In this document: positions 40,134-62,576 of the stretch, piece after piece
Layout of the letters: each line of letters starts with the position of its first letter
How positions within the stretch are numbered: position 1 is the first letter of the stretch
Source of the DNA: Bacteroidales bacterium
Lineage (GTDB): Bacteria; Bacteroidota; Bacteroidia; Bacteroidales; VadinHA17
Length of the DNA stretch: 64,000 nt
Direction of reading: 5' to 3'
NCBI GenBank assembly: GCA_034004025.1
Contig: JAVEXM010000002.1
Coordinates: forward strand, 38,083 to 102,082
Made by a program: the position numbers and the translations under genes
Notes under the pieces: generated by a model
The model's input: only the letters and a program-made list of their open reading frames with translations
The model's database searches: none
Told to the model about the DNA's origin: nothing

Positions 40134-40901
40134 ATGAAAAACAGAGCATTGTTATTGACAGCATTCACCCTTATGCTTACAGCATTCTTCTCCTGTACGC
40201 CGGAAGCAGAAGAGGATCCGGTAGAATTCAGCCTAAATGGCCCCATTGAGGTTTTTCAGACGGAAACCGCTGATTACACTGTGATTCCGGCAGCAGAACA
40301 GCCAGGAACAAGATGGGAGTGGTTCGTGGAAGGTGCGAGCCTGAGCGGTGTAAGTGCAGACACAAGGACTGCGACTGTAAGCTTCCCCAACATGCCTCCC
40401 GAAGACAGTGTCTTCATAGCTGCCACTGCCATTACTTCAGGAGGATCCGTCTCATCTCCAAAGGTGTTAGGGGTGTATGTTGAACCATTCTGCGTACTGG
40501 ACCTTAATGCTTACATCGGTTTATTCTCATGCGACGAGGCAGGCTATGACATCTACCCTGTGACCTTCACCAAACATCCGACGATGGCCAATACCATTGT
40601 GAACGATAACTTCTGGGACTTTGCTGCCGAAGGAGCAGTCGTCTATTATACCCTGTCAGGTGACTTCCTCGAGGAGGTGACTGTCCCCAGGCAGGATTTC
40701 GAGTTTGGCGACGGGTATGTAGGCTGGGTCGAGGGAAGCGGCACATATGACGGGTGCAACAATACTATGTCAATTGAAAATAAAGTATTCTATGAAGGGG
40801 CAGAATACACTATCTATCACAGCTTTGCCCCCGCAACAAAAGGCACAGTATACAATATCACCATAAAAAAGAGCAAGGAATATTTTAACAGGTACAGGTA
40901 G
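40134..40901 (+). CDS. Lipoprotein of unknown function
   Basis: Lipobox LTAFFSC followed by the acidic stretch TPEAEEDP. 255 aa. No family recognised. Confidence 0.6.
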   Translation: MKNRALLLTAFTLMLTAFFSCTPEAEEDPVEFSLNGPIEVFQTETADYTVIPAAEQPGTRWEWFVEGASLSGVSADTRTATVSFPNMPPEDSVFIAATAITSGGSVSSPKVLGVYVEPFCVLDLNAYIGLFSCDEAGYDIYPVTFTKHPTMANTIVNDNFWDFAAEGAVVYYTLSGDFLEEVTVPRQDFEFGDGYVGWVEGSGTYDGCNNTMSIENKVFYEGAEYTIYHSFAPATKGTVYNITIKKSKEYFNRYR

Positions 40902-41049: not shown

Positions 41050-44000
41050 TTATTTCCGCTCTGCTGAGATCTGACCGTACCTGTACCGTGCTGCAACAGC
41101 TACCGCTACAAGTACTCCCACAGCTATGTAAACAAAGACGGGCACAGGTACCGGGTCACCCCCGGCATAGGAATGGAGTCCCGACAGGTAATAGTTGACA
41201 CCGAAATAGGTCATCAGCACCGAGGATAGTGCAAACAGCGACAGGAGGTTAAAGGTATAGGTCTCCTTCATGCCGGGTATCATGCGCGAGTGTGTCACCA
41301 GCGTATAGACAATGATGGTGATCAGTGACCATGTCTCCTTGGGATCCCAGCCCCAGTAGCGTCCCCACGACTCATTGGCCCAGACAGCCCCCAGGAAAGT
41401 GCCGACAGTCAGGAAATAGAGCCCGAGGGTCAGCGACCTGTAGTTGATGACCGTTATCTCATCAATTACGGAGCTTATCCGTTCGCGGTTGCTGCTGTTG
41501 ACAAACAACATCATTATCAGCACTATCAGTCCCAGTATGGCTCCCAGCCCCAGGAACCCGTAGCTGCCTGTTATGACCGATACATGGAGTGTCAGCCAGT
41601 ACGACTTCAGCACCGGTACCAGGTTGGTGATCTCCGGATCCATGAAACTGAGATGCGCCACCATCAGTGTCAGTCCTGCCAGCACCGCCGTTGCCGCCAG
41701 CGTCAGCAGCGACCTCCGGCTGAAGATCAGACCGGCAAGCAGTGTTACCCACGATATGAACAGCATCGACTCATATCCGTTGCTCATCGGTGAGTGACCC
41801 GAGATGTACCACCTGATGCCAAGCCCCAGCGTGTGAAAAATAAATCCGCCGGCGATAAGTGCAGCCGGTATCTTCAGCAATACCCCCGACTGTTCTCTTC
41901 CCCTGATGATGAAGGTGATGATGACGGTTATCATTATCAGGCCAACGGTGGCATACCACGGGAAGAGCTTCTCAAATATCTTCGCCCTGTAATAGAACAG
42001 CTCCGCCTTCACCTTACCTGATGAAGGAAGCTCATAGCCGGCATGAACCCGCTGGTACTGCTTCAATGCCGAGAGAAAATCGTCAGGGTCAGCCGTGCCT
42101 TTTACGACGCTAGTGACCGACTGCACCCACATGGGTACCACGCTTATCACAAAGAGTGAGTCTTCCATGCCTATCTCATGCCTGGCGGCATCCTGAGCCA
42201 TCCCCCAGTGATCAGTACCGTCTCTCAGTGGGAATATGCGCATGAACTCACCCTTTGACATCATATAGCAAATGTTCACCCGCTCGTCCACCTTTATCAC
42301 CTCCTTGTCGAACCTGCTGCGCTCACTCTCAGCCTTTGCATAGGCCTTCTCAACGTAGGCTGACAACCTGTAACCGCCCCCCTCACCGAAGGTGACGATA
42401 TCGGAAAATGCAGCGCGCTCTCCGCTAAGTCCCAGCATCTGACGGAGCTCCTCATTTGACACCCTGATCAGAGGCACCTGCTGCCAGTGGTAGAAATCCA
42501 GAGAACAGCCAATGAAGACCTGCATTGGTGAGAGGCCGTCAAGGGTGTTCTCCCGTGCCACCTTGCGCAGTATGTCACTGCTCACAGTATAGAGAGGTTT
42601 CGTACGTCCCTTCTGATCCTGCACCAGCACCCCGCCAAAGCTGTCTGCAGCATCTTTGTCCAGCACCAGCTTCTGAGCGCTGACCGGCATCAGGGAGGCA
42701 GCAAGTGCCAGAATTATCACTGCTGCCGGCTTGCGGTATCTGCTGTTCCAGTAGCCGGGCCTCACTGTCCGGAAGAACGACCGCCTGTTCAGCAGGGTAA
42801 GGACGATGAACAGGAACAGTAGTCCGTAGCCGGCATATGTCGTAAGCATGCCTGCCGGGTCATGGTTCACCGACAGCACCGTGCCCATTTCGTCAGGGTC
42901 GTAAGACGACTGATAGAAGCGAAATCCCCGGTATTTAAGAATATGATTCATGTAAATGTCATACTGAAATCGGGTCTCATTTTCAGCATCAGCCAGGGTC
43001 ACCCTGCTTTTGAATCCTGACGGACTGTTTGAGCCGGGATAGCGATCAATCATAAAATCATCAAGGATAAGGCTGAAAGGGAGTTGCTTCATGATGCTGC
43101 CGTAACTTACCTTCACCTTCACGCTGCCCTCATCACCCTGCCATACCGATCCCCCTTGAGCCTCGTCGGTCCACAGGTATATCTTCCGTTCATAACCTGC
43201 TCCTGACAGTGTGCATTCAATGGCTCCCTCGGGACTTTCGCTGACCCTGTCAGGTGCCGGCACCACGGTGCCGTTCATGATAAGTTGCTGAGGCATTATG
43301 CGATAGCCTCCCACGGTGTAGACGGTTCCCTTTGACAGTGGTATCAGCGTGTCGGGAGCAAATATCATGGTTTGCATGTCCTGCATGCTGGTTGAACGGA
43401 TCTCCATGACGGACCTGATAAAGAATGCCGGGCTGTCACTGATCACGCTGATAACGGCATCAGTGTCCAGTCCGATTGACATCTCTCCTATCATGCCTGT
43501 CTCGCCCTGTTGAAGCACAATCATCTGACTGCTGACCATATCAGGGGTGGCAAGGAATGCTGCCACAGGTACTCCGTCGGGCGACTCCTCCACCTCTTTC
43601 ACAGCACCCGGAATGAATCTCTCCATCCTTAGGGTTATCTCTTCATCCCCTGCCTTGAGCATCTTTTTAAAGCGGCCGGCGCGCACCCCTGTCATGTCTA
43701 CGGGTGCAGAGTGGCTGGACAGTACCCTTCCGTCAGGGTCACTCACCTCGAATCTCACTTCATCGCCTGATGACCAGGTCAGAGAGGTGGTCTCTCCCTC
43801 CCTGATGTGCATCATGCCGTCATAGCCTGTATATCTTGTTATTGCTGCCCCGATGACCATCACAATGAAGGCGGCATGGAACAGCATAACCGTCAGTTTT
43901 TCCTTGCGGTAGAGCCTGAATGTTACGATCTGGCCTGCGAGGTTTACAACCAGGAGCAGGAAAAGCAGCTCAAACCAGCGGGCATTGTAGATCAGCGCCC

Positions 44001-44118
44001 TGGCACTGTCGGCACCAAAGTCATTTTCAATGAATGTGGCAACAGCCATCGCAATGGCAAGCACAATGAAAAGTATGCCCATCAATGCGGGCGTAAACAA
44101 AAACCTGATTGTCTTCAT
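41050..44118 (-). CDS. ccsBA: System II cytochrome c biogenesis protein, fused CcsB(ResB)-CcsA(ResC)
   Basis: 1022 aa. ResB-like N-terminus (TM helices plus a large periplasmic loop) and a C-terminal CcsA with the WWD motif WGRYWGWDPKETW. Confidence 0.9.
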   Translation of the reverse strand: MKTIRFLFTPALMGILFIVLAIAMAVATFIENDFGADSARALIYNARWFELLFLLLVVNLAGQIVTFRLYRKEKLTVMLFHAAFIVMVIGAAITRYTGYDGMMHIREGETTSLTWSSGDEVRFEVSDPDGRVLSSHSAPVDMTGVRAGRFKKMLKAGDEEITLRMERFIPGAVKEVEESPDGVPVAAFLATPDMVSSQMIVLQQGETGMIGEMSIGLDTDAVISVISDSPAFFIRSVMEIRSTSMQDMQTMIFAPDTLIPLSKGTVYTVGGYRIMPQQLIMNGTVVPAPDRVSESPEGAIECTLSGAGYERKIYLWTDEAQGGSVWQGDEGSVKVKVSYGSIMKQLPFSLILDDFMIDRYPGSNSPSGFKSRVTLADAENETRFQYDIYMNHILKYRGFRFYQSSYDPDEMGTVLSVNHDPAGMLTTYAGYGLLFLFIVLTLLNRRSFFRTVRPGYWNSRYRKPAAVIILALAASLMPVSAQKLVLDKDAADSFGGVLVQDQKGRTKPLYTVSSDILRKVARENTLDGLSPMQVFIGCSLDFYHWQQVPLIRVSNEELRQMLGLSGERAAFSDIVTFGEGGGYRLSAYVEKAYAKAESERSRFDKEVIKVDERVNICYMMSKGEFMRIFPLRDGTDHWGMAQDAARHEIGMEDSLFVISVVPMWVQSVTSVVKGTADPDDFLSALKQYQRVHAGYELPSSGKVKAELFYYRAKIFEKLFPWYATVGLIMITVIITFIIRGREQSGVLLKIPAALIAGGFIFHTLGLGIRWYISGHSPMSNGYESMLFISWVTLLAGLIFSRRSLLTLAATAVLAGLTLMVAHLSFMDPEITNLVPVLKSYWLTLHVSVITGSYGFLGLGAILGLIVLIMMLFVNSSNRERISSVIDEITVINYRSLTLGLYFLTVGTFLGAVWANESWGRYWGWDPKETWSLITIIVYTLVTHSRMIPGMKETYTFNLLSLFALSSVLMTYFGVNYYLSGLHSYAGGDPVPVPVFVYIAVGVLVAVAVAARYRYGQISAERK

Positions 44119-44139
44119 GAAACTGATTTGTGTGCAAAA

Positions 44140-44835
44140 CTAGCCCTTTTCTGAGATAACGCGCAACTTGTCCTTGTCAAGGATCTTGACTGAGCGAGGC
44201 ATGGCCCTGATGATCTTTTCATTCTCCAGCTCGCCCAGGATCCTGACAACGCTTTCCTTGGCCATATTTGTCATCTCTCCGATCTCCTGACGTGTCAGGA
44301 GCATCTCATAATCATCCGAGTGGAAAACCTCATCCGCAAAGTAAAGAAGTGCTTCAGCCAGTCTGCCATGCATCTTTTTCTGGGTAAGGTTTAAAATCTT
44401 CTGATGCATCCGGAATGCCTTCTCACTCAGATCTTCTATGAACCCAAGGGCAAATCCCGGGTTTCCGGCAATTATCGTACGGATCACGTCAAAACTGATG
44501 AAACAGGCCTGTACATGAGTTATTGCAGCTACTGAATAGCAGTAGCGCGAATTCACATGGACACCCGGGCCGGCCAGTAATGTAGAGTGCTCGGCAAGAT
44601 TGATCAGCAGGTTTCTGCCGGAATAACCCTCCATGTAGACTTTTGCCAGCCCGGAGGTGAGGAAAATGGCATTTGATGACGGGGATCCCTGCTTGATTAT
44701 TATTTCCGAAGGATTAAAACTGGCCTCGTAACGGTTCCTGTTTACCAGTTCAAGCTCCTCCGCTGACAGACCCTTAAAATTGGCCCAGCATCTGTTGCAG
44801 ACCTCACAGCCTGAAATAACATTTTCGCTATACAT
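44140..44835 (-). CDS. Crp/Fnr family transcriptional regulator with N-terminal Cys cluster (FNR-like)
   Basis: cNMP-binding-like beta-roll and C-terminal HTH (ESVVRILGELENEKII). Cysteines at positions 10, 13 and 16 (CEVCNRC), plus 99 and 111. Confidence 0.85.
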   Translation of the reverse strand: MYSENVISGCEVCNRCWANFKGLSAEELELVNRNRYEASFNPSEIIIKQGSPSSNAIFLTSGLAKVYMEGYSGRNLLINLAEHSTLLAGPGVHVNSRYCYSVAAITHVQACFISFDVIRTIIAGNPGFALGFIEDLSEKAFRMHQKILNLTQKKMHGRLAEALLYFADEVFHSDDYEMLLTRQEIGEMTNMAKESVVRILGELENEKIIRAMPRSVKILDKDKLRVISEKG

Positions 44836-44913
44836 CAGGATACATATTAAATTTCAAAGCTAATTACGAACATCATTATTGAGCCATAAATATAACAAAT
44901 ATCATATTTCCCC

Positions 44914-44927
44914 TTGACTTATATCAA
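44914..44927. promoter_or_regulatory. FNR/CRP-type palindromic box TTGACTTATATCAA
   Basis: Matches TTGAT-N4-ATCAA at 9 of 10 specified positions. It lies in the divergent spacer between the regulator and the six-haem gene. Confidence 0.55.
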
Positions 44928-45120
44928 TCCATTGCCTCGTACTTATCAATCTGTTGTGATTGAAATATCAATGGCAAACAGTAAGCACCGATCGAGGGTC
45001 TTGCTAACTTTCAGAACAGAAATTATGAGAGGGACACGCCCTGACCTTAATGTACCGGATAACATAAACAGAATGGCAAAATCCGGGGGTGTCATCATTC
45101 ATGAAAATAAAAATATCCAT

Positions 45121-46182
45121 ATGAAAAGAAATCTTAACCTTATCGCGATCCTGATTGCTGCAGTCATGGTAATGTCTTCCTGTGAGGGTCCCATGGGTCC
45201 GATCGGTGAGGATGGGGAAAAAGGCGACCAGGGAGAACCGGGGACGACGCTTGCCTGTGCCGATTGCCATAACAGCAACAGTCAGATGACAGCCTTCTCT
45301 GCCCAGTGGGCAGAATCGACGCATGCCACAGGAGGGAATGCCGCCTACGCGAACAGAGACGGATGCGTACAGTGTCACACAAGCCAGGGCTTTCTCGAGT
45401 ATGTAGCCGAAGGCTCGGTGGCAGACATCTCCGTACCACAGAATCCGATGCAGATCAACTGCTTCACCTGCCACAAGATCCATGAGACATACTCTTCGGA
45501 TGACTGGGCTCTCACCAAGCCCGGGGCTCAGACACTCGATGTCAAGTATGCAGGTGCCGATGTCGTATGGGATAAAGGTTCGAGCAATCAGTGCGTCTTC
45601 TGCCATCAGTCGCGCAATGTTTCACCTGCTCCTGCAGTTAACGGTACCGACTTTGAAATAACGAACAACCGTATGGGTCCGCACCACGGTCCCAACGCCA
45701 ACCTGATACTTGGAAAAACACCGTTTGAACTGCCAGGAGCCCAGGCTCCGGCAAACAATCCTCACTCCACGGCAAACGGATGTGTTACATGCCACATGTC
45801 AGCCCCATACGGATACCAGGCCGGGGGGCATAACATGGGTGTCTGGTATGACAACCACGGTAGCGAGACAATGCTGAAGACAGGCTGCACGACATGTCAC
45901 TCCAACTCAACCACACTTACAGCAATGATAAACTCATTGACTGATGATATCAGCGACAGGATGGAGGATCTGGAGGCTCAGCTCGTTGCCGCAGGTGTAT
46001 ACAATACCACAACAGAGCTGGCCAATAAGGGAACATTTGCAGCAAATGCGGTACTGGCTTACCTGAACTACAACACTGTAAAGGAAGACCGCAGCAACGG
46101 ACTCCACAATCCCGAATACATCAGGGTACTGCTCGACAATTCGATCGCTGCCATGACAGCCCTGGGATACCCTGCTCCTTAA
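45121..46182 (+). CDS. Six-haem c-type cytochrome lipoprotein with collagen-like Gly-X-Y stalk
   Basis: The ATG at 45121 gives MKRNLNLIAILIAAVMVMSSC (lipobox). GPMGPIGEDGEKGDQGEPG follows, then six CxxCH motifs (CADCH, CVQCH, CFTCH, CVFCH, CVTCH, CTTCH). The track's 5' extension from TTG 44914 has no signal peptide. Confidence 0.8.
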   Translation: MKRNLNLIAILIAAVMVMSSCEGPMGPIGEDGEKGDQGEPGTTLACADCHNSNSQMTAFSAQWAESTHATGGNAAYANRDGCVQCHTSQGFLEYVAEGSVADISVPQNPMQINCFTCHKIHETYSSDDWALTKPGAQTLDVKYAGADVVWDKGSSNQCVFCHQSRNVSPAPAVNGTDFEITNNRMGPHHGPNANLILGKTPFELPGAQAPANNPHSTANGCVTCHMSAPYGYQAGGHNMGVWYDNHGSETMLKTGCTTCHSNSTTLTAMINSLTDDISDRMEDLEAQLVAAGVYNTTTELANKGTFAANAVLAYLNYNTVKEDRSNGLHNPEYIRVLLDNSIAAMTALGYPAP

Positions 46183-46203
46183 GAATAATAACAGAGAAAG
46201 CAC

Positions 46204-46242
46204 AAAAAAAGCTGTTCGCCGATTGGCGGACAGCTTTTTTTT
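46204..46242. terminator. Bidirectional hairpin terminator between convergent cytochrome genes
   Basis: A7-AGCTGTTCGCC-GATT-GGCGGACAGCT-T8. Confidence 0.8.
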
Positions 46243-46256
46243 ATGTCTTACAGGAA

Positions 46257-46673
46257 CTATTTTTTCAGTGATCTCATGTAGTTGACCATATTCCAGATAT
46301 CAGTATCAGGAATCTTTTTGTCGTAAGCAGGCATCTCACCTCTCCCGAATTTGGTCTGGTAGAAAATTTCGCCATCGGTATAGCCCTGGAAAGCGGCACC
46401 CGAGAAATCACCGGGGAATGTTTTGCACATTCTTCCCTTTGGTCCGTCACCGAGGCCTGTCTTTCCGTGACAGGAAGCACAGTTCCTGGCGTATGCCATC
46501 TGGCCGGCTTTGACTGAGGCGGCGTCTGCTGCAACAGGATTGGCCATCTTCTTGTATTCGGCAGGAATTTCCCAGGGTTCTCCCTTTTTCTGCTGTGCAT
46601 TTGCAGTGACTGACATGAAGCCAAATGAAGCTGCCAGGAACATTACTGAAATAATTTTAATTGATCTTTTCAT
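46257..46673 (-). CDS. Periplasmic monohaem class I-type cytochrome c
   Basis: Signal peptide, a single CASCH, and a distal GEMPAY Met-ligand-like motif. 138 aa. Confidence 0.85.
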   Translation of the reverse strand: MKRSIKIISVMFLAASFGFMSVTANAQQKKGEPWEIPAEYKKMANPVAADAASVKAGQMAYARNCASCHGKTGLGDGPKGRMCKTFPGDFSGAAFQGYTDGEIFYQTKFGRGEMPAYDKKIPDTDIWNMVNYMRSLKK

Positions 46674-46699
46674 AAAACGATATTTTAAATTAAACTCTA

Positions 46700-47320
46700 T
46701 TAGTGACTCTCCTGCCAGCCGGTAATAATACTCCTGAAATTGCTCAGGGGAGTCTTACCCATTGTACTGACATAGAGATGAATGAACAGGAATATAACCA
46801 CCAGGAATCCAAGAATGACATGGAACTGGTCCGTGAGAAAAATCCCGCTGAATCCCAGGAATTTCTTCAGTATGAATTCAGGGAACATCAGCGCCCACCC
46901 GGTGATGAAAAGCATGGGTAGGGCGAAATACATCACACCGACGTATGACACCTGCTGCAGTGGGTTGAATTTGCGTTCGCTGCTGACAGGGAATGGCGCC
47001 TCTTCACCTTTGAAGTAGCCGTATGCATAATAGCGTCCCTGTTTCCAGAGCCGCTTCCCCAGGCCCTTCATGCCCAGGAGGTAGTGTTTGCCGTTGGAGG
47101 TGAAGAGATTTCCAAAGAGAAACAGTGTATAGCTTATCGTAAGAAGCACACCGCACACATTATGTATCGAGACCGCCCTCTGGAAATTAACAACAAGTGC
47201 GTTATCCGGGTCTGAATAGAGCATGCTGAACCCCGTCACAATCAGGAAGAGGCACAGGACTGCATTGGTAAGGTGCCAGAGCCGGACCCAGGCGGGATAG
47301 TGGTAAAAATTCTTACTCAT
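46700..47320 (-). CDS. Membrane b-type cytochrome (HydC/FdnI/PhsC-like, four conserved His)
   Basis: Four or five TM helices. His residues occur in RLWHLTN, SIHNVCG and FHVILGFLVVIFLFIHLY. The start overlaps the upstream stop by 8 nt. Confidence 0.7.
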   Translation of the reverse strand: MSKNFYHYPAWVRLWHLTNAVLCLFLIVTGFSMLYSDPDNALVVNFQRAVSIHNVCGVLLTISYTLFLFGNLFTSNGKHYLLGMKGLGKRLWKQGRYYAYGYFKGEEAPFPVSSERKFNPLQQVSYVGVMYFALPMLFITGWALMFPEFILKKFLGFSGIFLTDQFHVILGFLVVIFLFIHLYVSTMGKTPLSNFRSIITGWQESH

Positions 47321-48323
47321 GAACTTGCTCCTTAGGTTTAATAACTATCCTGAAGATGGTGTGCACCAGGGCAAATGCAAGAGTCATGCCAATAATCAGC
47401 AGCCCTGCAAAGGATATCAGCTTACTGCGGTTTGCACCTATCACGTATGAGTCATTCCTGAGCATTACCCCATTGACAAATCCCTTCTCATCGCGACTCT
47501 CCTTTGCGGCATATTTGTACAGTGTCCCCATCAGTATTGAGTTCTGGCTGTGGCAGTCAGTACATCCCCTGACGGCGCTGTCTGCCGGCATGACCTCATG
47601 AGCCACCAGAACGCTGTCATTCATGCGGGTATGGCAGTCAATACATCTCACCGCTTCCAGGTGACGCTCAACATCCGGCAGCCACTCATGCTTGGGAAGC
47701 ACTATCTCAACATTTTCATCGGTGATCAGTCCCATGACATCAGCATTGCTGTGACAACGTAGACACATCTCATTTGACCGGATTATGTATTCCCTGCCTC
47801 CCTGTGTCTGCCGGGCAAGAGGATTATAATAATGCGGGTCATGACACTTCCAGCATGTAATCAGGCCGTCTGTTGCAGTATAGTGAACACTCTTCTGATA
47901 CTCCTCGTCGATCTTCTCAAACCCGTACTGTTCATAGTTCGGATCATAACCGTGACAGTCAATACATCCCCACGATGTTTCAAACCGGGCCTCTATCGAA
48001 TGAGGAAAGATTTTGAAATCCTCTGAATGACAGTCGAGACAACTGAAACTCCAGTGAACTGAGTTATAGAACATCCCCGGTATGACCAGGTTTTGCTCCG
48101 ACATCAGCTGCTTCCGTGTCATCCCCATCAATGTATCAGTAAGGGTGTAAATTAGCTTCCCGTGACACACAAGGCAATTGGTCTCGTTATCTTCGGCATA
48201 GAGGCTCAGTTCAGCTCCCCTTGTAACATGGAGGCTGTCCTGATATTCCGCCCGGGCAATTGCCTGGTGCGAGAAGACGAAGAATATAACTGTCAGACAA
48301 ACAGAATATCTAGTTAAGATCAT
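47313..48323 (-). CDS. Seven-haem c-type cytochrome with C-terminal membrane anchor
   Basis: N-terminal signal and seven CxxCH motifs (CLVCH, CLDCH, CIDCH, CWKCH, CLRCH, CIDCH, CTDCH). C-terminal TM helix LISFAGLLIIGMTLAFALVHTIF. Confidence 0.8.
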   Translation of the reverse strand: MILTRYSVCLTVIFFVFSHQAIARAEYQDSLHVTRGAELSLYAEDNETNCLVCHGKLIYTLTDTLMGMTRKQLMSEQNLVIPGMFYNSVHWSFSCLDCHSEDFKIFPHSIEARFETSWGCIDCHGYDPNYEQYGFEKIDEEYQKSVHYTATDGLITCWKCHDPHYYNPLARQTQGGREYIIRSNEMCLRCHSNADVMGLITDENVEIVLPKHEWLPDVERHLEAVRCIDCHTRMNDSVLVAHEVMPADSAVRGCTDCHSQNSILMGTLYKYAAKESRDEKGFVNGVMLRNDSYVIGANRSKLISFAGLLIIGMTLAFALVHTIFRIVIKPKEQVHE

Positions 48324-48339
48324 TTTTTGCCTGGTTGGA

Positions 48340-49176
48340 TCAGAACCTTACGGTGACGTTAAGACCTATCAGGAAGTTACCGTCACTGATGCTGTTCTGA
48401 TTGTATACAAAATTATACTGTCCAAGTATATCCTTATAGTTGGCGAAGAATATCTGGAATGCATGGGTGGGTGTACCGATCTCCCATCCGAGAGCAAGCT
48501 GAGGCTTCGGATTGAAATCCTCGTTCTCCTGCTTGTTGAACAGCTGATCGTACTCGGCGATAATACTGTGTGAGCCGGCTACATTGTACCTTGCTCCTGC
48601 CGAGATCCCGTAGTGGGCATTTTTGTACCCGATCTCAACGGCATTGAACCATATGAATGTAGGTGCAAGCTGAAGCGAAAACTTCTCACCGAACTGACGT
48701 GCAACCAGTATCTGGCTGAAGTAGGAAAGACGGTGTATCTCCCTCCAGTCGTGTGCCGGCCCGAAAGTATTCTGATTCAGAAGGTTCAAACCAACATCTC
48801 CGTAAAAAGCCAGTGACACCGGAACCGACCCCGAACTGGTCTGCTGCAACAGGGCATACTTCACTGCCACATCCTGGGCCTTGTAGTTTTTTGCAGTACC
48901 GGCACCGATAACCAGCCTGTCTGTGATGGCGTAATTGAGTCCCAGTCTTATGTTGGCCGGAGCCCACAGGCCAAACAGATCATCAAGAGCATTGTTTACC
49001 GTCCCGAACCTGTGATGTATCTCAAACTCGAGCATCCCCTTGAATGGAGTTGTAACCGTCTGGTTATCTATTAATATGCTTGTTTCGAACAGCCTTACCG
49101 GGTAATCTTCGCTCACCTGGCTGAATAGAGGCAGAAAGAGCAGGACGAGAATTACTGATGATAATATCTTTCTCAT
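48340..49176 (-). CDS. Outer-membrane-type beta-barrel protein (DUF5777-like)
   Basis: Signal peptide MRKILSSVILVLLFLPLFSQ, alternating hydrophobic beta-strand pattern, and a C-terminal ...LNVTVRF ending in Phe. The family name is from memory. Confidence 0.6.
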   Translation of the reverse strand: MRKILSSVILVLLFLPLFSQVSEDYPVRLFETSILIDNQTVTTPFKGMLEFEIHHRFGTVNNALDDLFGLWAPANIRLGLNYAITDRLVIGAGTAKNYKAQDVAVKYALLQQTSSGSVPVSLAFYGDVGLNLLNQNTFGPAHDWREIHRLSYFSQILVARQFGEKFSLQLAPTFIWFNAVEIGYKNAHYGISAGARYNVAGSHSIIAEYDQLFNKQENEDFNPKPQLALGWEIGTPTHAFQIFFANYKDILGQYNFVYNQNSISDGNFLIGLNVTVRF

Positions 49177-49202
49177 GTTTATCTTGGTTTAGGTTCTTAA
49201 GG

Positions 49203-49568
49203 TTAGTCCTTTTCGGCTCCCTGGGATGCCCATATTTTTATTACGTCAGGTGCCGGTAACAACAGGGTGTCGACCTGCAGCATCTGTGACCCGAACGCAG
49301 TTATCGATGAATGAATCGAAAGAACCCTGCTGGAGGCCGGGGTGACGGTATCGACATTTGCGATCAGCTTGTCATATGTCCGGTCAACACTCCATGCTCC
49401 GTGACAGCTCTGGCAGAACGGAAAGATGTTCTCCGAGTAGCTGACAACAAGATCCTGAGGTACCTCCGGCTTTGCCCATGCATACTTCTCACATGAAGAC
49501 AGGACCACCAGGCAGGTCATTAGCATTGCTGGCAGCAATAACTTTATAATCCTCTTACTACGCTCCAT
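49203..49568 (-). CDS. Monohaem lipoprotein with PSCyt1-like (planctomycete cytochrome c) domain
   Basis: I prefer the ATG at 49568 (MERSKRIIKLLLPAMLMTCLVVLSSC lipobox). It has NIFPFCQSCHG and a C-terminal IKIWASQGA, resembling the PSCyt1 pattern. The track's 5' extension is unlikely. Confidence 0.6.
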   Translation of the reverse strand: MERSKRIIKLLLPAMLMTCLVVLSSCEKYAWAKPEVPQDLVVSYSENIFPFCQSCHGAWSVDRTYDKLIANVDTVTPASSRVLSIHSSITAFGSQMLQVDTLLLPAPDVIKIWASQGAEKD

Positions 49569-49677
49569 CTTTCTGATATTGTTATTACAATCACAAATAT
49601 ATCGTAATAAGGGGTCTCTTTGTGGGCGACCACAATATATTTGTCTGATATATAGCTGTTTCTTATCAACTGGACAG

Positions 49678-49691
49678 TTGACATTTATCAC
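49678..49691. promoter_or_regulatory. Second FNR/CRP-type box TTGACATTTATCAC upstream of the cytochrome operon
   Basis: Matches TTGAT-N4-ATCAA at 8 of 10 positions and shares the TTGAC half-site with the box at 44914. A minus-strand TATATTTG -7 box lies at 49595-49602. Confidence 0.45.
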
Positions 49692-49752
49692 CGGTCGGAC
49701 TGCTAAATATTATCCTTCGACCAGGCTTGTCAGGGTGAAAACTGCCGGGAGG

Positions 49753-51459
49753 TCAGTTTACCTTGAAAAGACCGAGCTCTTTCTCTTCAAATCCGTTGAT
49801 ATATCCTGATCTCATGCTGTTCTCAGAGATGGCCATGGAGACAAAGAGTTCTGCCGAAGAGGCGCGGACGGCATCGCGCTGTGCATCTTTCAGCAGCAGG
49901 TATCCCATTATGATATTGGCAGCCATCTCCACCATGCGCCGTGCATGGAAATCGGTCAGTTCATTGTTGCCGGCAGCCACTACTTCCGCAACTCTCTTCT
50001 CATAATCGCCTGTCAGGGTGATGAGCATCCTGCGCAGGTGTTCCAGCTCAGGCCTCAGTTCCGTTTTCTCGTACTCCCTCATCTGTGCAAGATATCCGCC
50101 GGTGGTCACGCCCCTGACGGCTGCGACTACCTGCAGCTGGGATGTCCCCTCATAGATGGATGTTATGCGGGCATCGCGGTAGAGTCGTTCCACGGGGAAG
50201 TCCTTTATGAATCCTGCCCCGCCGTGTATCTGAACGGCATCATAGGCAATGCTATTGCACCACTCGCTGCTGATGAGCTTGACCATGGGTGTGTAAATAT
50301 CCGCCAGCCGGGTGTTGGCCTTAAGGTCATCACGTTCCTCCTTCTCCAGCTTGCGCTCTTCGCTGATGAACGACCATGCCTTGTAGATGTCTACAAACCT
50401 TGCTGTCTCATAGAGCAGTGACCTCATTGCCTCTATGCGGACCCTCATGACGGTGAGCATCTCATACACAGGAGGAAACTGGTCTATGGTTTTACCAAAC
50501 TGCTTTCTCTCCGAGGCATATTTCCTTGCCTCCTCATATGCCGCCTGTGCTATGCCCACTGCCTGAGCCCCCACGCCCAGGCGGGCTCCGTTCATCAGTG
50601 ACATGACATACTTTATCAGCCCCATGCGCCTCTCGCCTATCAGCCTTGCAGGAGCATTTCGGAACACCAGTTCGCAGGTAGGCGAACCCTTGATCCCCAT
50701 CTTGTTTTCAATCCTCCGCACCGTCACGGCACCCTCAGCCTTGTCATAGACGAACAGCGACAGTCCGCGTCCGTCAGTGGTGCCCTCTTCCGAGCGGGCC
50801 AGCACCAGTGATATCTCTGCGTCGCCGTTGGTGATGAAGCGCTTGACGCCGTTGAGCATCCATGTGCCCCTGGCTTCATCATAGTGCGCTTTCAGCTGCA
50901 CCGCCTGGAGGTCAGACCCTGCATCAGGCTCCGTCAGATCCATGGCTGCCGTCGCCCCCCTGTTGAAGCGGGGCAGGAACTCATCTTTAAGCTCGTCAGA
51001 GGCAAATTCCAGTATGGTCTCGCCGCAATCCTGCAACCCCCATATGTTGGCGAACCCGGCATCAGCCCGGGAGACCAGCTCTGCGGCCATGACATATGGC
51101 ACCATCGGGAAGTTGAGCCCGTCATACCTGCGCGGAAAGTTCATCCCTATGACACCGGCTTTCGTCAGAGCCTCATGGTTCTCCTGCGTTCCGCGTGCAT
51201 AACGCACCCGTCCGTCAACAACCTCAGGTCCTTCATGGTCAACATCTTCAGCATTGGGGGCAATTACATCGGCACAGATGGCCCCTATTATCTCCAGCAC
51301 CCTCTCATAATTGTCCATGGCATCCTCATAATCGTGAGGGGCATAGTCGTAGTGATCCCTGTCACTGTAATCCATCTCCTTCAGCCTGACGATCTTGCGC
51401 ATCACCGGATGGTTGAGATGGAAACGCAGGTCTCTGTTGTCTGTATAAAAATTTGCCAT
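49753..51459 (-). CDS. Long-form acyl-CoA dehydrogenase
   Basis: 568 aa with ACAD N, middle and C domains (DLTEPDAGSDL, IENKMGIKGSPT, IYEGTSQLQ) plus a C-terminal extension. Adjacent to etfBA. Confidence 0.9.
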   Translation of the reverse strand: MANFYTDNRDLRFHLNHPVMRKIVRLKEMDYSDRDHYDYAPHDYEDAMDNYERVLEIIGAICADVIAPNAEDVDHEGPEVVDGRVRYARGTQENHEALTKAGVIGMNFPRRYDGLNFPMVPYVMAAELVSRADAGFANIWGLQDCGETILEFASDELKDEFLPRFNRGATAAMDLTEPDAGSDLQAVQLKAHYDEARGTWMLNGVKRFITNGDAEISLVLARSEEGTTDGRGLSLFVYDKAEGAVTVRRIENKMGIKGSPTCELVFRNAPARLIGERRMGLIKYVMSLMNGARLGVGAQAVGIAQAAYEEARKYASERKQFGKTIDQFPPVYEMLTVMRVRIEAMRSLLYETARFVDIYKAWSFISEERKLEKEERDDLKANTRLADIYTPMVKLISSEWCNSIAYDAVQIHGGAGFIKDFPVERLYRDARITSIYEGTSQLQVVAAVRGVTTGGYLAQMREYEKTELRPELEHLRRMLITLTGDYEKRVAEVVAAGNNELTDFHARRMVEMAANIIMGYLLLKDAQRDAVRASSAELFVSMAISENSMRSGYINGFEEKELGLFKVN

Positions 51460-51493
51460 CGGAATATCCTTTTGTTACTGTCAGAAAACTCTT

Positions 51494-52540
51494 TTACCTG
51501 GCATTTGCCTTATAGTGCTTAATGAGCTTCGGGATTATCTCTGCCACATCTCCGTTTATCACGTAGTCGGCCATGCTGTTAATGGGCGCCATTGCATCAT
51601 TGTTGATGGCAATGATCTTTCCGCTCTGGCTCATGCCCGCCGTGTGCTGTATCTGTCCTGAGATGCCGCATGCGATGTAGAGCTTCGGCCGCACCGTCAC
51701 CCCTGTCTGCCCCACCTGCCGCTCGTGGCCGGCAAATCCTGCATCCACGGCTGCCCTGGAGGCAGCCACCTCACCCCCGAGGACGGAGGCCAGCTCGTAC
51801 AACATGTTGAAATTCTCCCTTGAGCCCATGCCGTAACCGCCGGAGACGATTATCTGTGCCGACTTGATGTCAACCCTCCGGGCCTCCATATGCCGTTCGA
51901 TTATCTCCACGGCGAGGTCCTCAGGCCTTATGAAGTCAGATACATTTATTCTCTTCAGTTCACCGCGGTAGTTCCTGTTCATGATCTCCTTCTTCATCAC
52001 CCCCTCACGCACCGTGGCCATCTGGGGACGGTGATCGGGATTGATGATTGTGGCAATGATGTTACCCCCGAAGGCGGGTCTGATCTGGTAGAGAAGGTTT
52101 TTGTAGGTGGTGTCTGTCTTTTTGACGTAGTGATCACCTATCTCGAGGCCTGTGCAGTCTGCCGTCAGGCCGCTGTGCAGTGCCGAGGAGACCCTCGGGC
52201 CCAGGTCGCGCCCGGTGGTTGTGGCTCCCATAAGGGCTATCTGCGGCTGCTCCTGCCTGAAGAGGCCGACGATGACAGAGGTATAGGGCATGGTACGGTA
52301 ATGTTCCAGCACCGGGTCATCGGCCAGGTGCACCACATCGGTGCCGTAAGGGAATAGCTCCTTCTCAATGCCCTCAATGCCGCTGCCAAGCACCACTGCC
52401 TCGAGCCTGCAGCCGAGCGTGTTGGCCAGCGACCGGCCTTTGGTCAGCAGTTCGAGACTCACATCGACAGGCTTGCCCTCATCAAGCTCACAAAAGACGA
52501 ATAGACTGTTCACTTTGCGGATATTTTTTCTGTTGATCAA
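51494..52540 (-). CDS. etfA: Electron transfer flavoprotein subunit alpha
   Basis: C-terminal FAD-binding region PKLYIACGISGQIQHTAGM. Confidence 0.9.
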   Translation of the reverse strand: MINRKNIRKVNSLFVFCELDEGKPVDVSLELLTKGRSLANTLGCRLEAVVLGSGIEGIEKELFPYGTDVVHLADDPVLEHYRTMPYTSVIVGLFRQEQPQIALMGATTTGRDLGPRVSSALHSGLTADCTGLEIGDHYVKKTDTTYKNLLYQIRPAFGGNIIATIINPDHRPQMATVREGVMKKEIMNRNYRGELKRINVSDFIRPEDLAVEIIERHMEARRVDIKSAQIIVSGGYGMGSRENFNMLYELASVLGGEVAASRAAVDAGFAGHERQVGQTGVTVRPKLYIACGISGQIQHTAGMSQSGKIIAINNDAMAPINSMADYVINGDVAEIIPKLIKHYKANAR

Positions 52541-53400
52541 CCAATTGTATGACTCTCAAGCAACTCCTTAACGAGGGCTTCAATGTCCCTGTCGGATGAG
52601 GTGAGCTGTTTTGTCTCTTTCGACTGAAGTATGACGTTGTCTATCTCCTTCACCTTGGTGGGTGAACCCGACAGACCCAGCTGCTCCGTGTCAGCACCGA
52701 CAGCCTCTGTCCCCCACTCGGTAATACGCACATTGGGTCTGCTGCCGGCTATGTAGTCGGCGTTCTCAGCCTGCAACTCAGTGTCAGTGCGGGCATATTT
52801 GTACTTCATCACAAGGCGGGCGTTGCGGTAGCGGCATGCGGGGGCGGTACCGTTGACGGTCACCACCAGCGGCAGCGGGGCGGAGAGGGTCTCAACGCCG
52901 CGCTCAAGCCTTCTGCGTACCACCAGTCGCTCATTCTCAAAGTGCATCTCCTCGGCATAGGTCACCTGCGGCCATCCCAGCTTCTCCGCTATCTGCGGCC
53001 CCACCTGTGCAGTGTCACCGTCGATGGCCTGACGCCCCCCGAGGACCAGGTCAGGCGCCAGCCTGCGGATGGCCAGCGTCAGGGCATAGGATGTGGCAAG
53101 CGTGTCAGAGCCTGCAAAAGCCCTGTCGGTCAGCAGTACCCCGTCATCGGCACCGCGGTAGAGACCCTCGCGGATGATCTCGGCTGCACGCCCCGGCCCC
53201 ATGGTAAGAACCGTCACCGTCGTGCCCTCATATTGCTCTTTGATACGCAGAGCCTGCTCCAGCGCATTCAGATCCTCCGGGTTGAAGATGGCGGGCAGGA
53301 CACTCCTGTTGACGGTGCCGTCAGCTTTCATGGCGTCAGGCCCCACATTGCGTGTGTCAGGTACCTGCTTCGCCAGGACAACGATCTTGATTCCTTTCAT
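52537..53400 (-). CDS. etfB: Electron transfer flavoprotein subunit beta
   Basis: MKGIKIVVLAKQVPD N-terminus (ATG at 53400 preferred). 4-nt overlap with etfA. Confidence 0.9.
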   Translation of the reverse strand: MKGIKIVVLAKQVPDTRNVGPDAMKADGTVNRSVLPAIFNPEDLNALEQALRIKEQYEGTTVTVLTMGPGRAAEIIREGLYRGADDGVLLTDRAFAGSDTLATSYALTLAIRRLAPDLVLGGRQAIDGDTAQVGPQIAEKLGWPQVTYAEEMHFENERLVVRRRLERGVETLSAPLPLVVTVNGTAPACRYRNARLVMKYKYARTDTELQAENADYIAGSRPNVRITEWGTEAVGADTEQLGLSGSPTKVKEIDNVILQSKETKQLTSSDRDIEALVKELLESHTIG

Positions 53401-53674
53401 ATCTCGTCTCACTGTTGAAGGGGCAAATATAACAATAAAACCATGCCTGCAAACACCAGCTTGCAGTTTTTGAGAGTCCGTTCGAAAGAGTTAAGCCTTT
53501 TATATGACTGTTATACTGTGCATTATAGAGTTGACCGCGGACTCAGTCCAGGACTGGTCGAACTTGCATGGCCCGTGGTGCAGCCTGATGCTGAAGGATA
53601 TAATTTTACATGAGCATGATTTAAATTATTGAATTAACTTCGCCCGCCGGATAATTGTCCGCATCACCTTCAAA

Positions 53675-58407: not shown

Positions 58408-58428
58408 CCAGTGACCGGCAGCAGAGAG

Positions 58429-59541
58429 ATGCAACCATCACGGGTATACTTTACCGATATGCGAAGTACGCCTTCGCTCAACCTTCTGAAAAAGCTTGAG
58501 AAGCTGGTGAAGGCGGCAGGGATCGATGAGATCGATTTCAACCGCAAGATGACCGCCATCAAGATCCATTTCGGCGAGCCGGGCAACCTGGCATACCTCA
58601 GGCCCAACTTCGCTGCCGTCATAGTTAAGATGGTAAAGGCCAGGGGAGGCAAGCCCTTCCTGACCGACTGCAACACACTGTACCACGGTGAGCGTGCCAA
58701 CGCACCCGACCATATCGAGGCGGCATATGTCAACGGTTATAACCCTCTCTCTACAGGGTGTCACGTGATTATCGGCGACGGCATCAAGGGCACTGACCAC
58801 CGGGAGATAGAGGTGAACCTCGATTATACCCGCAGGGCAATGATAGGCACAGCCATAGCTGATGCTGACATTATCATCTCCATGAATCACTTCAAGGGGC
58901 ATGAGCAGACAGGCTTTGGCGGTGCGCTGAAGAACCTGGGTATGGGCTGTGCCTCCGTGGGCGGAAAGCTCTTCCTCCACTCCGGCAATCCCCCAATCAT
59001 CTATAAAAAGAACTGTACCGGATGCAACATATGCGTCATCAACTGCGCCCATGATGCCGTCCATCTGGGGGCTGACAGGAAGGCTCACATAGACAATGAT
59101 AAGTGCACCGGTTGCGGTCAGTGTGTAGCCGTATGCCAGTATGATGCCGCCAGGGTGGTATGGGGTTCAGAGGGAGACATTCTGAGCAAGAAGATTGCAG
59201 AATATACGCTGGCAGTGATAAAGGACAAGCCGTCGCTGCATATCAGTTTCATCATGGATGTCTCGCCCGACTGCGACTGCTGGGGGCATAATGACAGGCC
59301 GCTGATTGATGACATAGGGATAGCCGCCTCAACAGACCCCGTTGCACTTGACAGGGCATGTGCAGACCTGGTAATGGCTGCACCTGCGGCACGGCATTTG
59401 TGGGACGAGAAAACCGGAGATGACCAGAGCGGCGTCGACAAGTTCCGGATGGCACACGGCAACACCGACTGGAACACTGCTCTCGTTCATGCTGAAAAGA
59501 TAAAAGCCGGCTCTTTATCATATAAACTGATACGGATATGA
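58429..59541 (+). CDS. DUF362 domain protein with 2x[4Fe-4S] ferredoxin insert
   Basis: DUF362-like N-terminus (VYFTDMR...IKIHFGE), with CTGCNICVINC and CTGCGQCVAVC motifs. Confidence 0.75.
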   Translation: MQPSRVYFTDMRSTPSLNLLKKLEKLVKAAGIDEIDFNRKMTAIKIHFGEPGNLAYLRPNFAAVIVKMVKARGGKPFLTDCNTLYHGERANAPDHIEAAYVNGYNPLSTGCHVIIGDGIKGTDHREIEVNLDYTRRAMIGTAIADADIIISMNHFKGHEQTGFGGALKNLGMGCASVGGKLFLHSGNPPIIYKKNCTGCNICVINCAHDAVHLGADRKAHIDNDKCTGCGQCVAVCQYDAARVVWGSEGDILSKKIAEYTLAVIKDKPSLHISFIMDVSPDCDCWGHNDRPLIDDIGIAASTDPVALDRACADLVMAAPAARHLWDEKTGDDQSGVDKFRMAHGNTDWNTALVHAEKIKAGSLSYKLIRI

Positions 59542-60051: not shown

Positions 60052-60124
60052 CGGGGTGTAGCGCAGTTGGTAGCGTACTACGTTCGGGACGTAGGGGCCG
60101 GAAGTTCGAGTCTTCTCACCCCGA
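60052..60124 (+). tRNA. tRNA-Pro (anticodon CGG)
   Basis: Manual cloverleaf: CGGGGTG-TA-GCGC-AGTTGGTA-GCGT-A-CTACG-TTCGGGA-CGTAG-GGGCC-GGAAG-TTCGAGT-CTTCT-CACCCCG-A. CCA is not encoded. Confidence 0.92.
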
Positions 60125-60137
60125 CAAGAGAAAAATG

Positions 60138-60169
60138 ACCATCCCCGGGAAACCGGGGGTGGTTTTTTT
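60138..60169 (+). terminator. Rho-independent terminator after tRNA-Pro
   Basis: ACCATCCCCGG-GAAA-CCGGGGGTGGT followed by a T7 run. Confidence 0.8.
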
Positions 60170-60254
60170 ATTGGCCTGAAGCGTCAACAGCTTGCTGTTG
60201 ATAGCGAAGGGACAATAAAAAAGAAGCTTTGAGTGAAACGAAAAGGTCATTTTT

Positions 60255-60425
60255 CTCTTCCGACCGGCCTTATGGAAGTCCGCGAGCCGCCAACTGGCGG
60301 AGAGCAATCTTCTCACCTCTTTCAGTCACCCCAATGGAAGTCCGCCCTGACCTCGCGAAGGGAGCGTCAGGGCAATCTTCTCACTCCCGGGAAAGCGAGC
60401 ATTCTTCTCACCCTCTTTCCAGTTT
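60255..60425 (+). repeat. Cluster A of degenerate 60-65 nt tandem repeats carrying copies of the tRNA-Pro 3'-end core
   Basis: GCAATCTTCTCAC occurs at 60304 and 60372, and TCTTCTCACCC at 60403. (T/A)ATGGAAGTCCGC occurs at 60271 and 60333. TCTTCTCACC(C) is identical to tRNA-Pro 60111-60121. Confidence 0.8.
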
Positions 60426-60497
60426 TGTGCGGCTTTCCGGTCCCTGAAACTATAACTATCTGATATATAGAGAATAGAGTGATTCTGAGTTGTAAAT

Positions 60498-60653
60498 ATG
60501 GGTGTCTCAGCCTATATTTACTGGTTGTTTGTACGGCAGAAAACCAACAGGAGCGGCAGTGTAAGTGTACAGATCGTTCAAAAGAATACAAGTACCACCC
60601 AATCAATTGGGATTAAAAATCATCATGGTAGGGAAACATCGTCTTTGTATTAA
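60498..60653 (+). pseudogene. N-terminal remnant of an IS1634/IS4-like transposase
   Basis: A 51-codon ORF reads MGVSAYIYWLFVRQKTNRSGSVSVQIVQKNTSTTQSIGIK... The VRQKTNRSGSVSVQIVQK part resembles the conserved N-terminus of IS1634-family transposases (from memory). It is truncated by a stop, with no DDE domain downstream. Confidence 0.45.
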
Positions 60654-60692
60654 AAATAGGGTATTGTATCTCCAGTTAAAGCGAAAAGTGTA

Positions 60693-62296: not shown

Positions 62297-62297
62297 G

Positions 62298-62575: not shown

Positions 62576-62576
62576 A

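Follow-up and report, generated by a model that had tools for sequence, protein, structure and literature searches.

Here we describe a conserved cluster of multihaem cytochrome, outer-membrane and regulatory genes found in a window of 64,000 nt (the whole stretch of DNA that was analysed) from contig JAVEXM010000002.1 of a Bacteroidales bacterium of the VadinHA17 lineage; the cluster occupies positions 41,050 to 49,691 of the window. Seven of its eight genes constitute a conserved unit, often arranged as a single co-directional operon. We propose that this unit encodes an anaerobic respiratory branch under FNR control, built around an inner-membrane bc cytochrome of the CbcBA (Cbc5) type and extended by an outer-membrane part that appears to be undescribed in the literature searched. 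We are fairly confident that the CbcBA-type assignment and the single FNR-controlled unit hold together. The full mechanism set out below has, in our judgment, slightly better than even prospects of being correct, and that electrons actually leave the cell by this cluster we rate a little under even.

A sequence-only reading of this DNA had listed eight adjacent genes with 15 CxxCH motifs and, in the minus-strand operon, gaps of 16 to 26 nt and one 8-nt overlap. All eight genes are present in the list of open reading frames (ORFs), the haem motifs add up as counted (6 + 1 + 7 + 1 = 15), and the operon, which comprises five genes, has gaps of 26, 16 and 26 nt, with the 8-nt overlap shared by the genes for the seven-haem protein and cytochrome b. 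The domain calls of that reading, which it had proposed to check, agree with our profile scans. In these scans of the cluster proteins, nothing exceeded the family cutoff for NrfH/NapC, NrfA, DmsE or a molybdopterin, Fe-S, copper or flavin subunit, in line with what had been noted for NrfH/NapC and these subunits. The two multihaem proteins matched generic multihaem models only, and PDB sequence searches gave no close solved relative of the seven-haem, hexahaem or barrel proteins. The cytochrome operon and the convergent hexahaem unit are parted by a bidirectional intrinsic terminator at 46204–46241, with a 17-bp stem and A and T runs on either side.

Conservation of the gene neighbourhood was assessed in relatives collected by scanning one genome per species with a cytochrome b alignment; more than 580 loci matched, and the best 80 were kept. 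These 80 all come from Bacteroidota bins and isolates, one bin being labelled Alphaproteobacteria, and the arrangement, which recurs across 80 species-level genomes, is far beyond chance. Six-frame ORFs of these loci were searched with the window proteins, and genes were counted in the 58 that extend 7.8 kb or more upstream of cytochrome b. The seven-haem cytochrome was found in all 58, the DUF5777 barrel in 57, Fnr in 56, the hexahaem lipoprotein in 50, the monohaem cytochrome c in 48 and CcsBA in 19. The small cytochrome is too divergent for a single-sequence search and was scored by ORF position, lipobox, haem motif and C-terminus; in 65 of 68 loci the gene immediately upstream of the barrel is an equivalent ORF of 120–135 residues. 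On these counts, seven of the eight genes form the conserved unit, and CcsBA is a lineage-specific neighbour and no constant member of it, adjoining the cluster solely in close relatives plus one other locus. The earlier suggestion of one functional unit of eight genes thus stands for seven co-conserved genes and is not supported for CcsBA.

Gene order is kept over a range of 50–98% cytochrome b identity. In distant genomes it runs Fnr, hexahaem protein, small cytochrome, barrel, cytochrome c, seven-haem protein and cytochrome b, mostly on one strand, the monohaem cytochrome c lying between the barrel and the seven-haem gene. Among the best 80 loci are those of Labilibaculum euxinus and L. manganireducens, at 50% identity, both of which carry the cluster (L079 and L085); known Mn(IV) reducers are found among the carriers. 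The window DNA itself is also present in several Bacteroidales metagenome bins.

The core of the unit is a pair of minus-strand genes. The first (47313–48323) encodes a c-type cytochrome of 336 residues with a signal peptide, seven CxxCH motifs and a C-terminal transmembrane (TM) helix that carries a conserved His (LVHTIF). The second (46700–47320) encodes a cytochrome b of 206 residues that matches PF01292 (E 1.2e-23) and for which the closest NCBIfam model is PhsC-like (E 8.9e-51, under its cutoff); its H16, H53, H167 and H181 are invariant in 22 homologues. Judged from sequence, this pair is a bc cytochrome of the CbcBA (Cbc5) type, with the first protein CbcA-like and the second a CbcB-like dihaem cytochrome. 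A full-library search for the seven-haem family gave 365 representative clusters at E <= 0.001. Among the 150 of these that were listed, 86 are full-length with exactly seven CxxCH motifs, and 84 of the 86 have a His in the C-terminal hydrophobic helix. Twenty-four of the listed 150 are long forms of about 500–570 residues; all 24 also match the window cytochrome b and hence represent natural fusions of the two subunits, which supports a CbcA-CbcB complex. Seven motifs are present in 72 of the 78 seven-haem orthologues in the loci, and a PF01292 gene lies immediately downstream of the seven-haem gene in every locus examined, inside or outside Bacteroidota.

In Geobacter sulfurreducens, CbcBA (GSU0593–GSU0594) is an inner-membrane bc-type quinone oxidoreductase that has been characterised genetically and works in electron discharge during low-potential extracellular respiration (Joshi, Chan and Bond, bioRxiv 10.1101/2021.04.15.440034). 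According to the same paper, Geobacter CbcA has seven haems and a C-terminal TM domain with a candidate b-haem His, CbcB is a "thiosulfate reductase-like" dihaem cytochrome with four TM helices, and CbcA-CbcB fusions occur in Chloroflexi. One sentence of it states that cbcBA clusters are found in Bacteroidetes, namely in Prolixibacter, Marinilabiliales and Labilibaculum. The core is therefore not undescribed, and that word, used earlier of the system as a candidate, does not hold for the quinol-oxidising part: CbcBA is known and its Bacteroidetes homologues have already been named (10.1101/2021.04.15.440034).

The named family members seen outside Bacteroidota belong to Magnetococcales and Telmatospirillum. 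The Magnetococcales seven-haem homologue is 34% identical to the window protein (E 2e-54), with all haem motifs and the TM His aligned, and the cytochrome b beside this CbcA-like gene is 40% identical (E 2e-51); the pair adjoins a divergent sigma54 response regulator, much as Geobacter cbcBA has bccR for a neighbour. In four non-Bacteroidota loci, that of Magnetococcales and three others, the cbcA-like and cbcB-like genes are followed by a gene for a multihaem cytochrome of 715–739 residues (L091, 9722–11869; L093, 1890–4103; L095, 8642–10861; L096, 8795–10966). The barrel and the small lipoprotein cytochromes are absent from these four loci. The gene upstream of cbcA in Magnetococcales was considered as a diverged barrel and rejected (hhalign probability 0.1%), as it encodes an ankyrin-repeat protein (Pfam Ank). 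The four loci without the barrel set indicate that the barrel, the small cytochrome, the hexahaem lipoprotein and Fnr mark a Bacteroidota-type cluster; this set is also found in a more distant clade with an acidic-tailed cytochrome b.

The regulator (231 residues, 44140–44835, minus strand) belongs to the Crp/Fnr family, with Pfam matches to cNMP_binding (PF00027) and HTH_Crp_2 (PF13545) above the cutoffs. It begins MYSENVISGCEVCNRCW and contains Cys10-x2-Cys13-x2-Cys16 and Cys111, the N-terminal CxxCxxC already pointed out from the letters being the GCEVCNRCW stretch. In 64 orthologues C10, C13 and C111 are invariant; C16 is confined to the window clade, the fourth Cys varying by clade. The Cys pattern resembles that of Fe-S FNR proteins, and the regulator is likely the Fe-S oxygen or redox sensor of the cluster.

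Conserved putative FNR boxes head both transcription units. One, TTGACTTATATCAA, lies at 44914–44927, where fnr and the divergently transcribed hexahaem gene share a promoter region. The other, TTGACATTTATCAC on the plus strand, lies at 49679–49692 at the head of the minus-strand operon. A strict search for TTGA-N6-TCAA gave no site upstream of this operon; the site was recovered with the relaxed core TGAyN4rTCA together with an alignment, and falls within a palindromic block conserved in 23 aligned orthologous upstream regions. The same alignment conserves TATATTTG (49594–49601, minus strand), about 25 nt before the start codon of the small cytochrome, which matches the Bacteroides/Bacteroidota -7 promoter consensus TAnnTTTG. 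TGAyN4rTCA sites occur within 300 bp upstream of the hexahaem orthologue in 47 of 56 loci. Of the 42 loci that lack the hexahaem gene immediately upstream of the small-cytochrome/barrel operon, 27 have such a site at the operon head. At the background density of the loci, 0.238 sites per kb, about 4 chance hits would be expected for each of the two sets. Anaerobic induction by the Fnr-type regulator would be the natural expectation.

The outer-membrane part contains a beta-barrel of 278 residues (48340–49176, minus strand) with a signal peptide and a C-terminal Phe, as had been read from the letters; it matches DUF5777 (PF19089) over its full length (238.7 bits against a cutoff of 23.1, Pfam E 7e-71). 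No paper mentioning DUF5777 was found in the literature searched. An AlphaFold2 model from a 41-sequence alignment has 12 strands, a predicted local distance difference test score (pLDDT) of 85 and a predicted template-modelling score (pTM) of 0.81. In this model residues 30–48 form a well-modelled, highly conserved, non-helical N-terminal segment. By strand parity, the non-hydrophobic face of the barrel bears many invariant polar residues, e.g., E50, R56, N75, R77, D102 and K106, and this conserved polar face is presumably lumenal. A Foldseek search of the PDB gave only generic outer-membrane barrels of 12–14 strands at template-modelling scores of about 0.5, namely the COG4313 channel, FapF, NanC/KdgM, OmpG and Tsx.

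Directly upstream of the barrel is the gene of a small monohaem lipoprotein of 121 residues (49203–49568, minus strand), with a lipobox LSSC-E, the haem motif CQSCH and a C-terminal W-x-x-QGA. The family is characterised by a lipobox, one haem motif and a C-terminal W-x-x-QGA-x-NN. Among 65 small cytochromes the haem motif is CxxCH in 47, Cx4CH in 12 and Cx3CH in 2, and 4 are tandem forms with two CxxCH; tandem proteins, of about 210 residues with two CxxCH and two W-x-x-GA modules, occur in some lineages and a Cx3CH or Cx4CH motif in others (variants in L049, L053, L070 and L078). Neither the window protein nor any of 20 family members matched PSCyt1 (PF07635) in Pfam at E <= 1. The Pfam scans gave weak matches to Cytochrome_CBB3 and PccH, the latter in 4 of the 20 members, and weak PDB profile matches were to the haem region of hydrazine synthase, PccH (4rlr, E 6e-5) and FoxE (5mab, E 2e-3). 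At the same time, the family profile aligned with two PSCyt1 proteins over the whole domain (hhalign 98%, E 1e-13 and 2e-13), and the alignment covers the segment L051:830–1804 that matches PF07635 at E 2e-18. The label "PSCyt1-like" given to this protein earlier was thus right at the profile level, with no direct Pfam match.

A second DUF5777 paralogue occurs in two related loci (L051, 830–4481; L073, 14075–16568). The genes around it encode two lipoproteins, one a three-domain PSCyt1 protein (PF07635, E 2e-18) and the other small and PSCyt1-like, together with YceI of the polyisoprenoid-binding family and an OB-fold protein of the tRNA_anti-like family. Orthologous and paralogous barrels diverge too far for a joint alignment to serve as a search seed, and the two paralogues were used instead; the metagenome scan from them gave 43 loci (L098–L140 among them). 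PSCyt1 cytochromes stand beside the paralogous barrel in 24 of the 25 loci with at least 1.5 kb upstream, usually together with the YceI and OB-fold genes. Both DUF5777 groups examined, that of the cluster and one paralogous, are partnered with PSCyt1-type haem lipoproteins.

The third outer component is the hexahaem lipoprotein, encoded on the plus strand. Its ORF runs from 44914 to 46182 and gene callers start it at 45001; alignment of homologues puts the likely start at 45121 (MKRNLNL...SSCEGP), which gives a protein of 353 residues (45121–46182) with a lipobox, a G-x-y linker and six CxxCH motifs. Members of the family always have a lipobox (C-EGP or C-TKEGP), 3–9 collagen-like G-x-y triplets and 5–6 CxxCH motifs. 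All six motifs of the window protein are CxxCH, with no CxxCK among them, and they are accompanied by seven further invariant His residues. With the latter, every haem could have bis-His ligation, an arrangement more in keeping with electron transfer than with catalysis. The AlphaFold2 model of the protein has a pLDDT of 77. Its best PDB fold match is 6qvm, an undecahaem cytochrome from the S-layer of the iron-reducing Carboxydothermus ferrireducens (E 3e-4, template-modelling score 0.44), followed by octahaem nitrite reductases and NrfA; 8rv0 and 3sxq are among these Foldseek matches. In sequence comparisons the MtrC/MtrF domain II/IV model scored 35.4 bits against a cutoff of 30, Cytochrom_C552 scored 21.8 bits (E 1e-4), under its cutoff of 24.1, and PDB entry 8rv0 was matched at E 8e-3. 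A lipid anchor, an extended spacer and an electron-transfer haem domain fit a protein held off a membrane surface, and we consider the hexahaem protein a candidate terminal or surface cytochrome.

The resulting reading is that of an FNR-controlled anaerobic respiratory branch. Menaquinol would be oxidised at the four-His dihaem cytochrome b, and electrons would pass to the seven-haem CbcA-like subunit, whose His-bearing C-terminal helix may pack against the b subunit. The soluble monohaem class I cytochrome c encoded by the last gene of the operon (138 residues, 46257–46673, minus strand; Sec signal, haem motif CASCH, Pfam Cytochrome_CBB3 and Cytochrom_C) is a candidate periplasmic carrier. 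From it, electrons could reach the outer-membrane module, consisting of the 12-strand DUF5777 barrel and the PSCyt1-like monohaem lipoprotein, and then the hexahaem lipoprotein on its collagen-like stalk, which would reduce an extracytoplasmic acceptor. The acceptor would most likely be extracellular or insoluble: Mn(IV) or Fe(III) oxides, humics or a partner cell. The Fnr-type regulator, with four Cys for an Fe-S cluster, is predicted to switch on both units when oxygen is absent, via boxes of the TTGAT-N4-ATCAA type, and in the window lineage the neighbouring CcsBA would serve haem maturation. Gene content, families, co-conservation, FNR boxes, the fusions that point to a CbcA-CbcB complex and the barrel-cytochrome pairing are results of the comparisons above. 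Which way the electrons flow, the sequence in which the carriers act, the locations of the two lipoproteins, the outer-membrane passage and the acceptor are inferred; transfer across the outer membrane is plausible.

A more specific version of this proposal, which we regard as doubtful, would make the DUF5777 barrel and the PSCyt1-type lipoprotein an outer-membrane redox module of minimal size, hitherto unrecognised in Bacteroidota and comparable in function to Cyc2 or the porin-cytochromes, though split. In this cluster it would link quinol oxidation by the CbcBA-type complex to a surface reductase, the hexahaem protein on its collagen-like and possibly trimeric stalk.

Several observations weigh against the proposed branch. 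A 12-strand barrel cannot enclose a cytochrome domain, and we know of no outer-membrane conduit as small as 12 strands. The barrel modelled here is not wide enough to form a sheath around a cytochrome in the manner of MtrB, and hence any outer-membrane route must work differently; the term "envelope-spanning" applied earlier to the system goes beyond the evidence. The barrel could, moreover, be plugged by its own N-terminal segment, with a polar face to the lumen. The fold matches of the hexahaem protein are weak (template-modelling scores of 0.3–0.44) and include nitrite reductases. Class I cytochromes of the Cytochrome_CBB3 type usually have a high potential, which is odd beside the low-potential role of CbcBA in Geobacter. 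The homology to Geobacter CbcA and CbcB is indirect, drawn through intermediates and the statement of the Geobacter paper; the best 120 listed matches in the search toward GSU0593/GSU0594 are all from Bacteroidota. Finally, an Fnr-type regulator and FNR boxes are found here, in contrast to the sigma54 regulator BccR of Geobacter; control by BccR belongs to the operon of Geobacter and does not characterise the protein family.

The strongest alternative, which we think improbable yet deserving of attention, confines the branch to the periplasm: a CbcBA-type quinol:cytochrome c oxidoreductase would feed periplasm-facing cytochromes, a soluble substrate would be reduced by the hexahaem protein or by an unlinked enzyme (peroxidase, N-oxide reductase or cbb3 oxidase), and the barrel would be a substrate channel or an anchor. 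The closest folds of the barrel are indeed small substrate channels (COG4313, NanC/KdgM, OmpG, Tsx), but the constant pairing of barrel and haem lipoprotein in both paralogue groups is hard to square with a plain substrate channel. The hexahaem protein has a distant likeness in fold and sequence to NrfA and octahaem nitrite reductases, but it lacks CxxCK or another sign of an open catalytic haem and has the seven extra invariant His. The carrier is a CcoP/c6-like class I cytochrome c, NrfC/NrfD-like genes follow cytochrome b in one relative, and FNR control would suit any anaerobic or microaerobic respiration. On the other side, a collagen-like stalk and acidic residues after the lipidated Cys would be more usual on surface proteins, and known Mn(IV) reducers are among the carriers of the cluster.

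Operation in the reverse direction is still less probable. In such a case the barrel-cytochrome pair and the hexahaem protein would oxidise an extracellular donor, e.g., Fe(II), a cathode or reduced humics, and the bc module would run inward, to the quinone pool or to a sink in the periplasm. Geobacter PccH, which is required for taking up electrons from electrodes, and FoxE, an Fe(II) oxidase, both match the profile of the small cytochrome; these matches are, however, weak and centred on the haem-binding motif. The combination of a monohaem cytochrome with a barrel also recalls the iron oxidase Cyc2. Against uptake stand the host lineage, which looks fermentative or anaerobic, with Etf and acyl-CoA dehydrogenase genes next door, the lack of a terminal oxidase or reductase linked to the cluster, and the characterised relative CbcBA, which works in discharge. 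That the adjacency is coincidental, with a barrel and lipoproteins of unrelated function beside a cytochrome operon, is hardly credible: CcsBA and the flanking Etf and acyl-CoA dehydrogenase genes are indeed linked only in close relatives, but the constancy of the barrel (57/58), small cytochrome (65/68) and Fnr (56/58), the gene order kept across 50–98% cytochrome b identity, the tight spacing with one overlap and the FNR boxes common to the transcription units exclude it for seven of the eight genes.

Apart from the Geobacter study (10.1101/2021.04.15.440034), no relevant paper joining CbcBA and Bacteroid* was found in the literature searched, and a paper on deep-sea chitin and extracellular electron transfer contained nothing on Bacteroidota cytochromes. 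The barrel, the PSCyt1-like lipoprotein and the collagen-tethered hexahaem lipoprotein appear to be undescribed, as do the conserved seven-gene architecture, the Fnr/FNR-box control of the cluster and the DUF5777-PSCyt1 pairing in both barrel groups. The earlier designation of the whole as a candidate undescribed system can thus be retained for the outer-membrane part, for which no paper was found, and not for the CbcBA core.

Bacteroidota are abundant in sediments, soils, digesters and guts, and some of them reduce metals, e.g., Labilibaculum manganireducens. To our knowledge, no route of extracellular electron transfer has been defined in this phylum. The cluster offers a concrete and widely distributed candidate, with more than 580 loci matched by cytochrome b, a known core, Fnr and FNR-box logic and undescribed outer-membrane parts, and the DUF5777-PSCyt1 pairing places two families of unknown function in a functional context for the first time. 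If a 12-strand barrel does take part in electron passage, this would add a new physical means by which electrons cross the outer membrane. If it takes no part, the cluster would still define a path from menaquinol to periplasmic c-type cytochromes without bc1 or alternative complex III in many anaerobic Bacteroidota. Should the barrel and lipoprotein form a minimal redox module, Bacteroidota would own an extracellular electron transfer route, and the PSCyt1/YceI/DUF5777 module would be a second use of the same device.

The GC content of the cluster (0.475–0.485) is slightly under that of its surroundings, its flanks carry housekeeping genes (MurJ, an aminotransferase, Lon, FtsH, phosphofructokinase, EtfAB and acyl-CoA dehydrogenase), and it sits on no obvious mobile element. 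The neighbouring CcsBA is a fused CcsB(ResB)-CcsA system II haem lyase of 1022 residues (41050–44118, minus strand), identified by Pfam ResB (PF05140), Cytochrom_C_asm (PF01578) and TIGR03144 (192 bits against a cutoff of 187.6). Beside it, at 40134–40901, is a predicted lipoprotein of 255 residues beginning MKNRALLLTAFTLMLTAFFSC, with no family match, which is kept in this place in close relatives. Directly upstream of the cytochrome operon and on the same strand, the region 49753–53412 encodes EtfB, EtfA and an acyl-CoA dehydrogenase of 568 residues with AcylCoA_dehyd_C, an adjacency limited to close relatives (15/58). In a relative of 66% identity (L005, 11350–15861), the cluster is followed by a protein with a type IX secretion tail (Por_Secre_tail), a TonB-dependent receptor and HmuY, a haem uptake set beside a haem-hungry operon. 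In L073 (8642–13923) cytochrome b is followed by a Tat-signal 4Fe-4S protein (NrfC/PsrB-like), an NrfD/PsrC-type membrane protein, a protein of 289 residues of no family and separate ResB-like and CcsA-like genes, which may form a second quinol-linked module beside the cluster.

Two further features of the window were noted. A DUF362 protein with an inserted 4Fe-4S dicluster domain is encoded at 58411–59541 beside phosphofructokinase and is unrelated to the cluster. At 60052–64000, the DNA after a tRNA-Pro gene (60052–60125) has a low GC content, 41% compared with about 53%, and encodes the AbiEii toxin (60693–61481) and the AbiEi antitoxin (61478–62296); it looks like an island integrated at the tRNA-Pro gene.

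Among known systems, nrfHA, alternative complex III and Psr/Phs/Ttr were rejected on family scores, and an Mtr/Pcc conduit on family scores and on the size of the barrel (12 strands, 278 residues), which upholds the earlier exclusion of all of these. The Mtr/Pcc systems (Shewanella MtrCAB; Geobacter OmaB/OmbB/OmcB) likewise have a barrel gene beside genes for a lipoprotein multihaem cytochrome and a periplasmic cytochrome. However, the barrel has about 12 strands here and 20–26 in the known conduits, with no sequence relation; no deca- or octahaem insert protein is present, the DmsE family reaching at best 33.6 bits where its cutoff is 192.2; and the protein that constantly accompanies the barrel is a lipoprotein with one haem. 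Cyc2 shares by analogy the pairing of one haem with one outer-membrane barrel as a minimal unit. In contrast to Cyc2, the cluster has two separate genes, with no fusion among the 65 loci that have both, a PSCyt1-type lipoprotein cytochrome, and 12 strands instead of about 16.

The hexahaem protein resembles NrfA, octahaem nitrite reductases and surface multihaem cytochromes of the OcwA-SmhA type in its helical C-terminal region and its last haems, but it differs from them in that its six haems are all CxxCH, it is a lipoprotein with a collagen-like linker, and the scores are weak. The separate, conserved but uncharacterised PSCyt1/YceI/OB-fold/DUF5777 module of Bacteroidota similarly has a DUF5777 barrel directly preceded by PSCyt1-type haem lipoproteins; it differs in its YceI and OB-fold genes, in its three-domain PSCyt1 protein and in having no CbcBA linkage in the loci examined. 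As to Geobacter CbcBA, the b subunit has four invariant His here, in contrast to three in CbcB and one from CbcA according to the Geobacter paper, and the present cluster has four additional components, namely barrel, PSCyt1-like lipoprotein, class I cytochrome c and collagen-tethered hexahaem lipoprotein, all of which the four non-Bacteroidota loci lack. The two systems have in common a seven-haem c subunit with a His-bearing C-terminal TM anchor, a separate thiosulfate-reductase-like dihaem b subunit with four TM helices encoded immediately downstream, a small uniform family in which natural fusions occur, and a dedicated adjacent regulator with tight transcriptional control.

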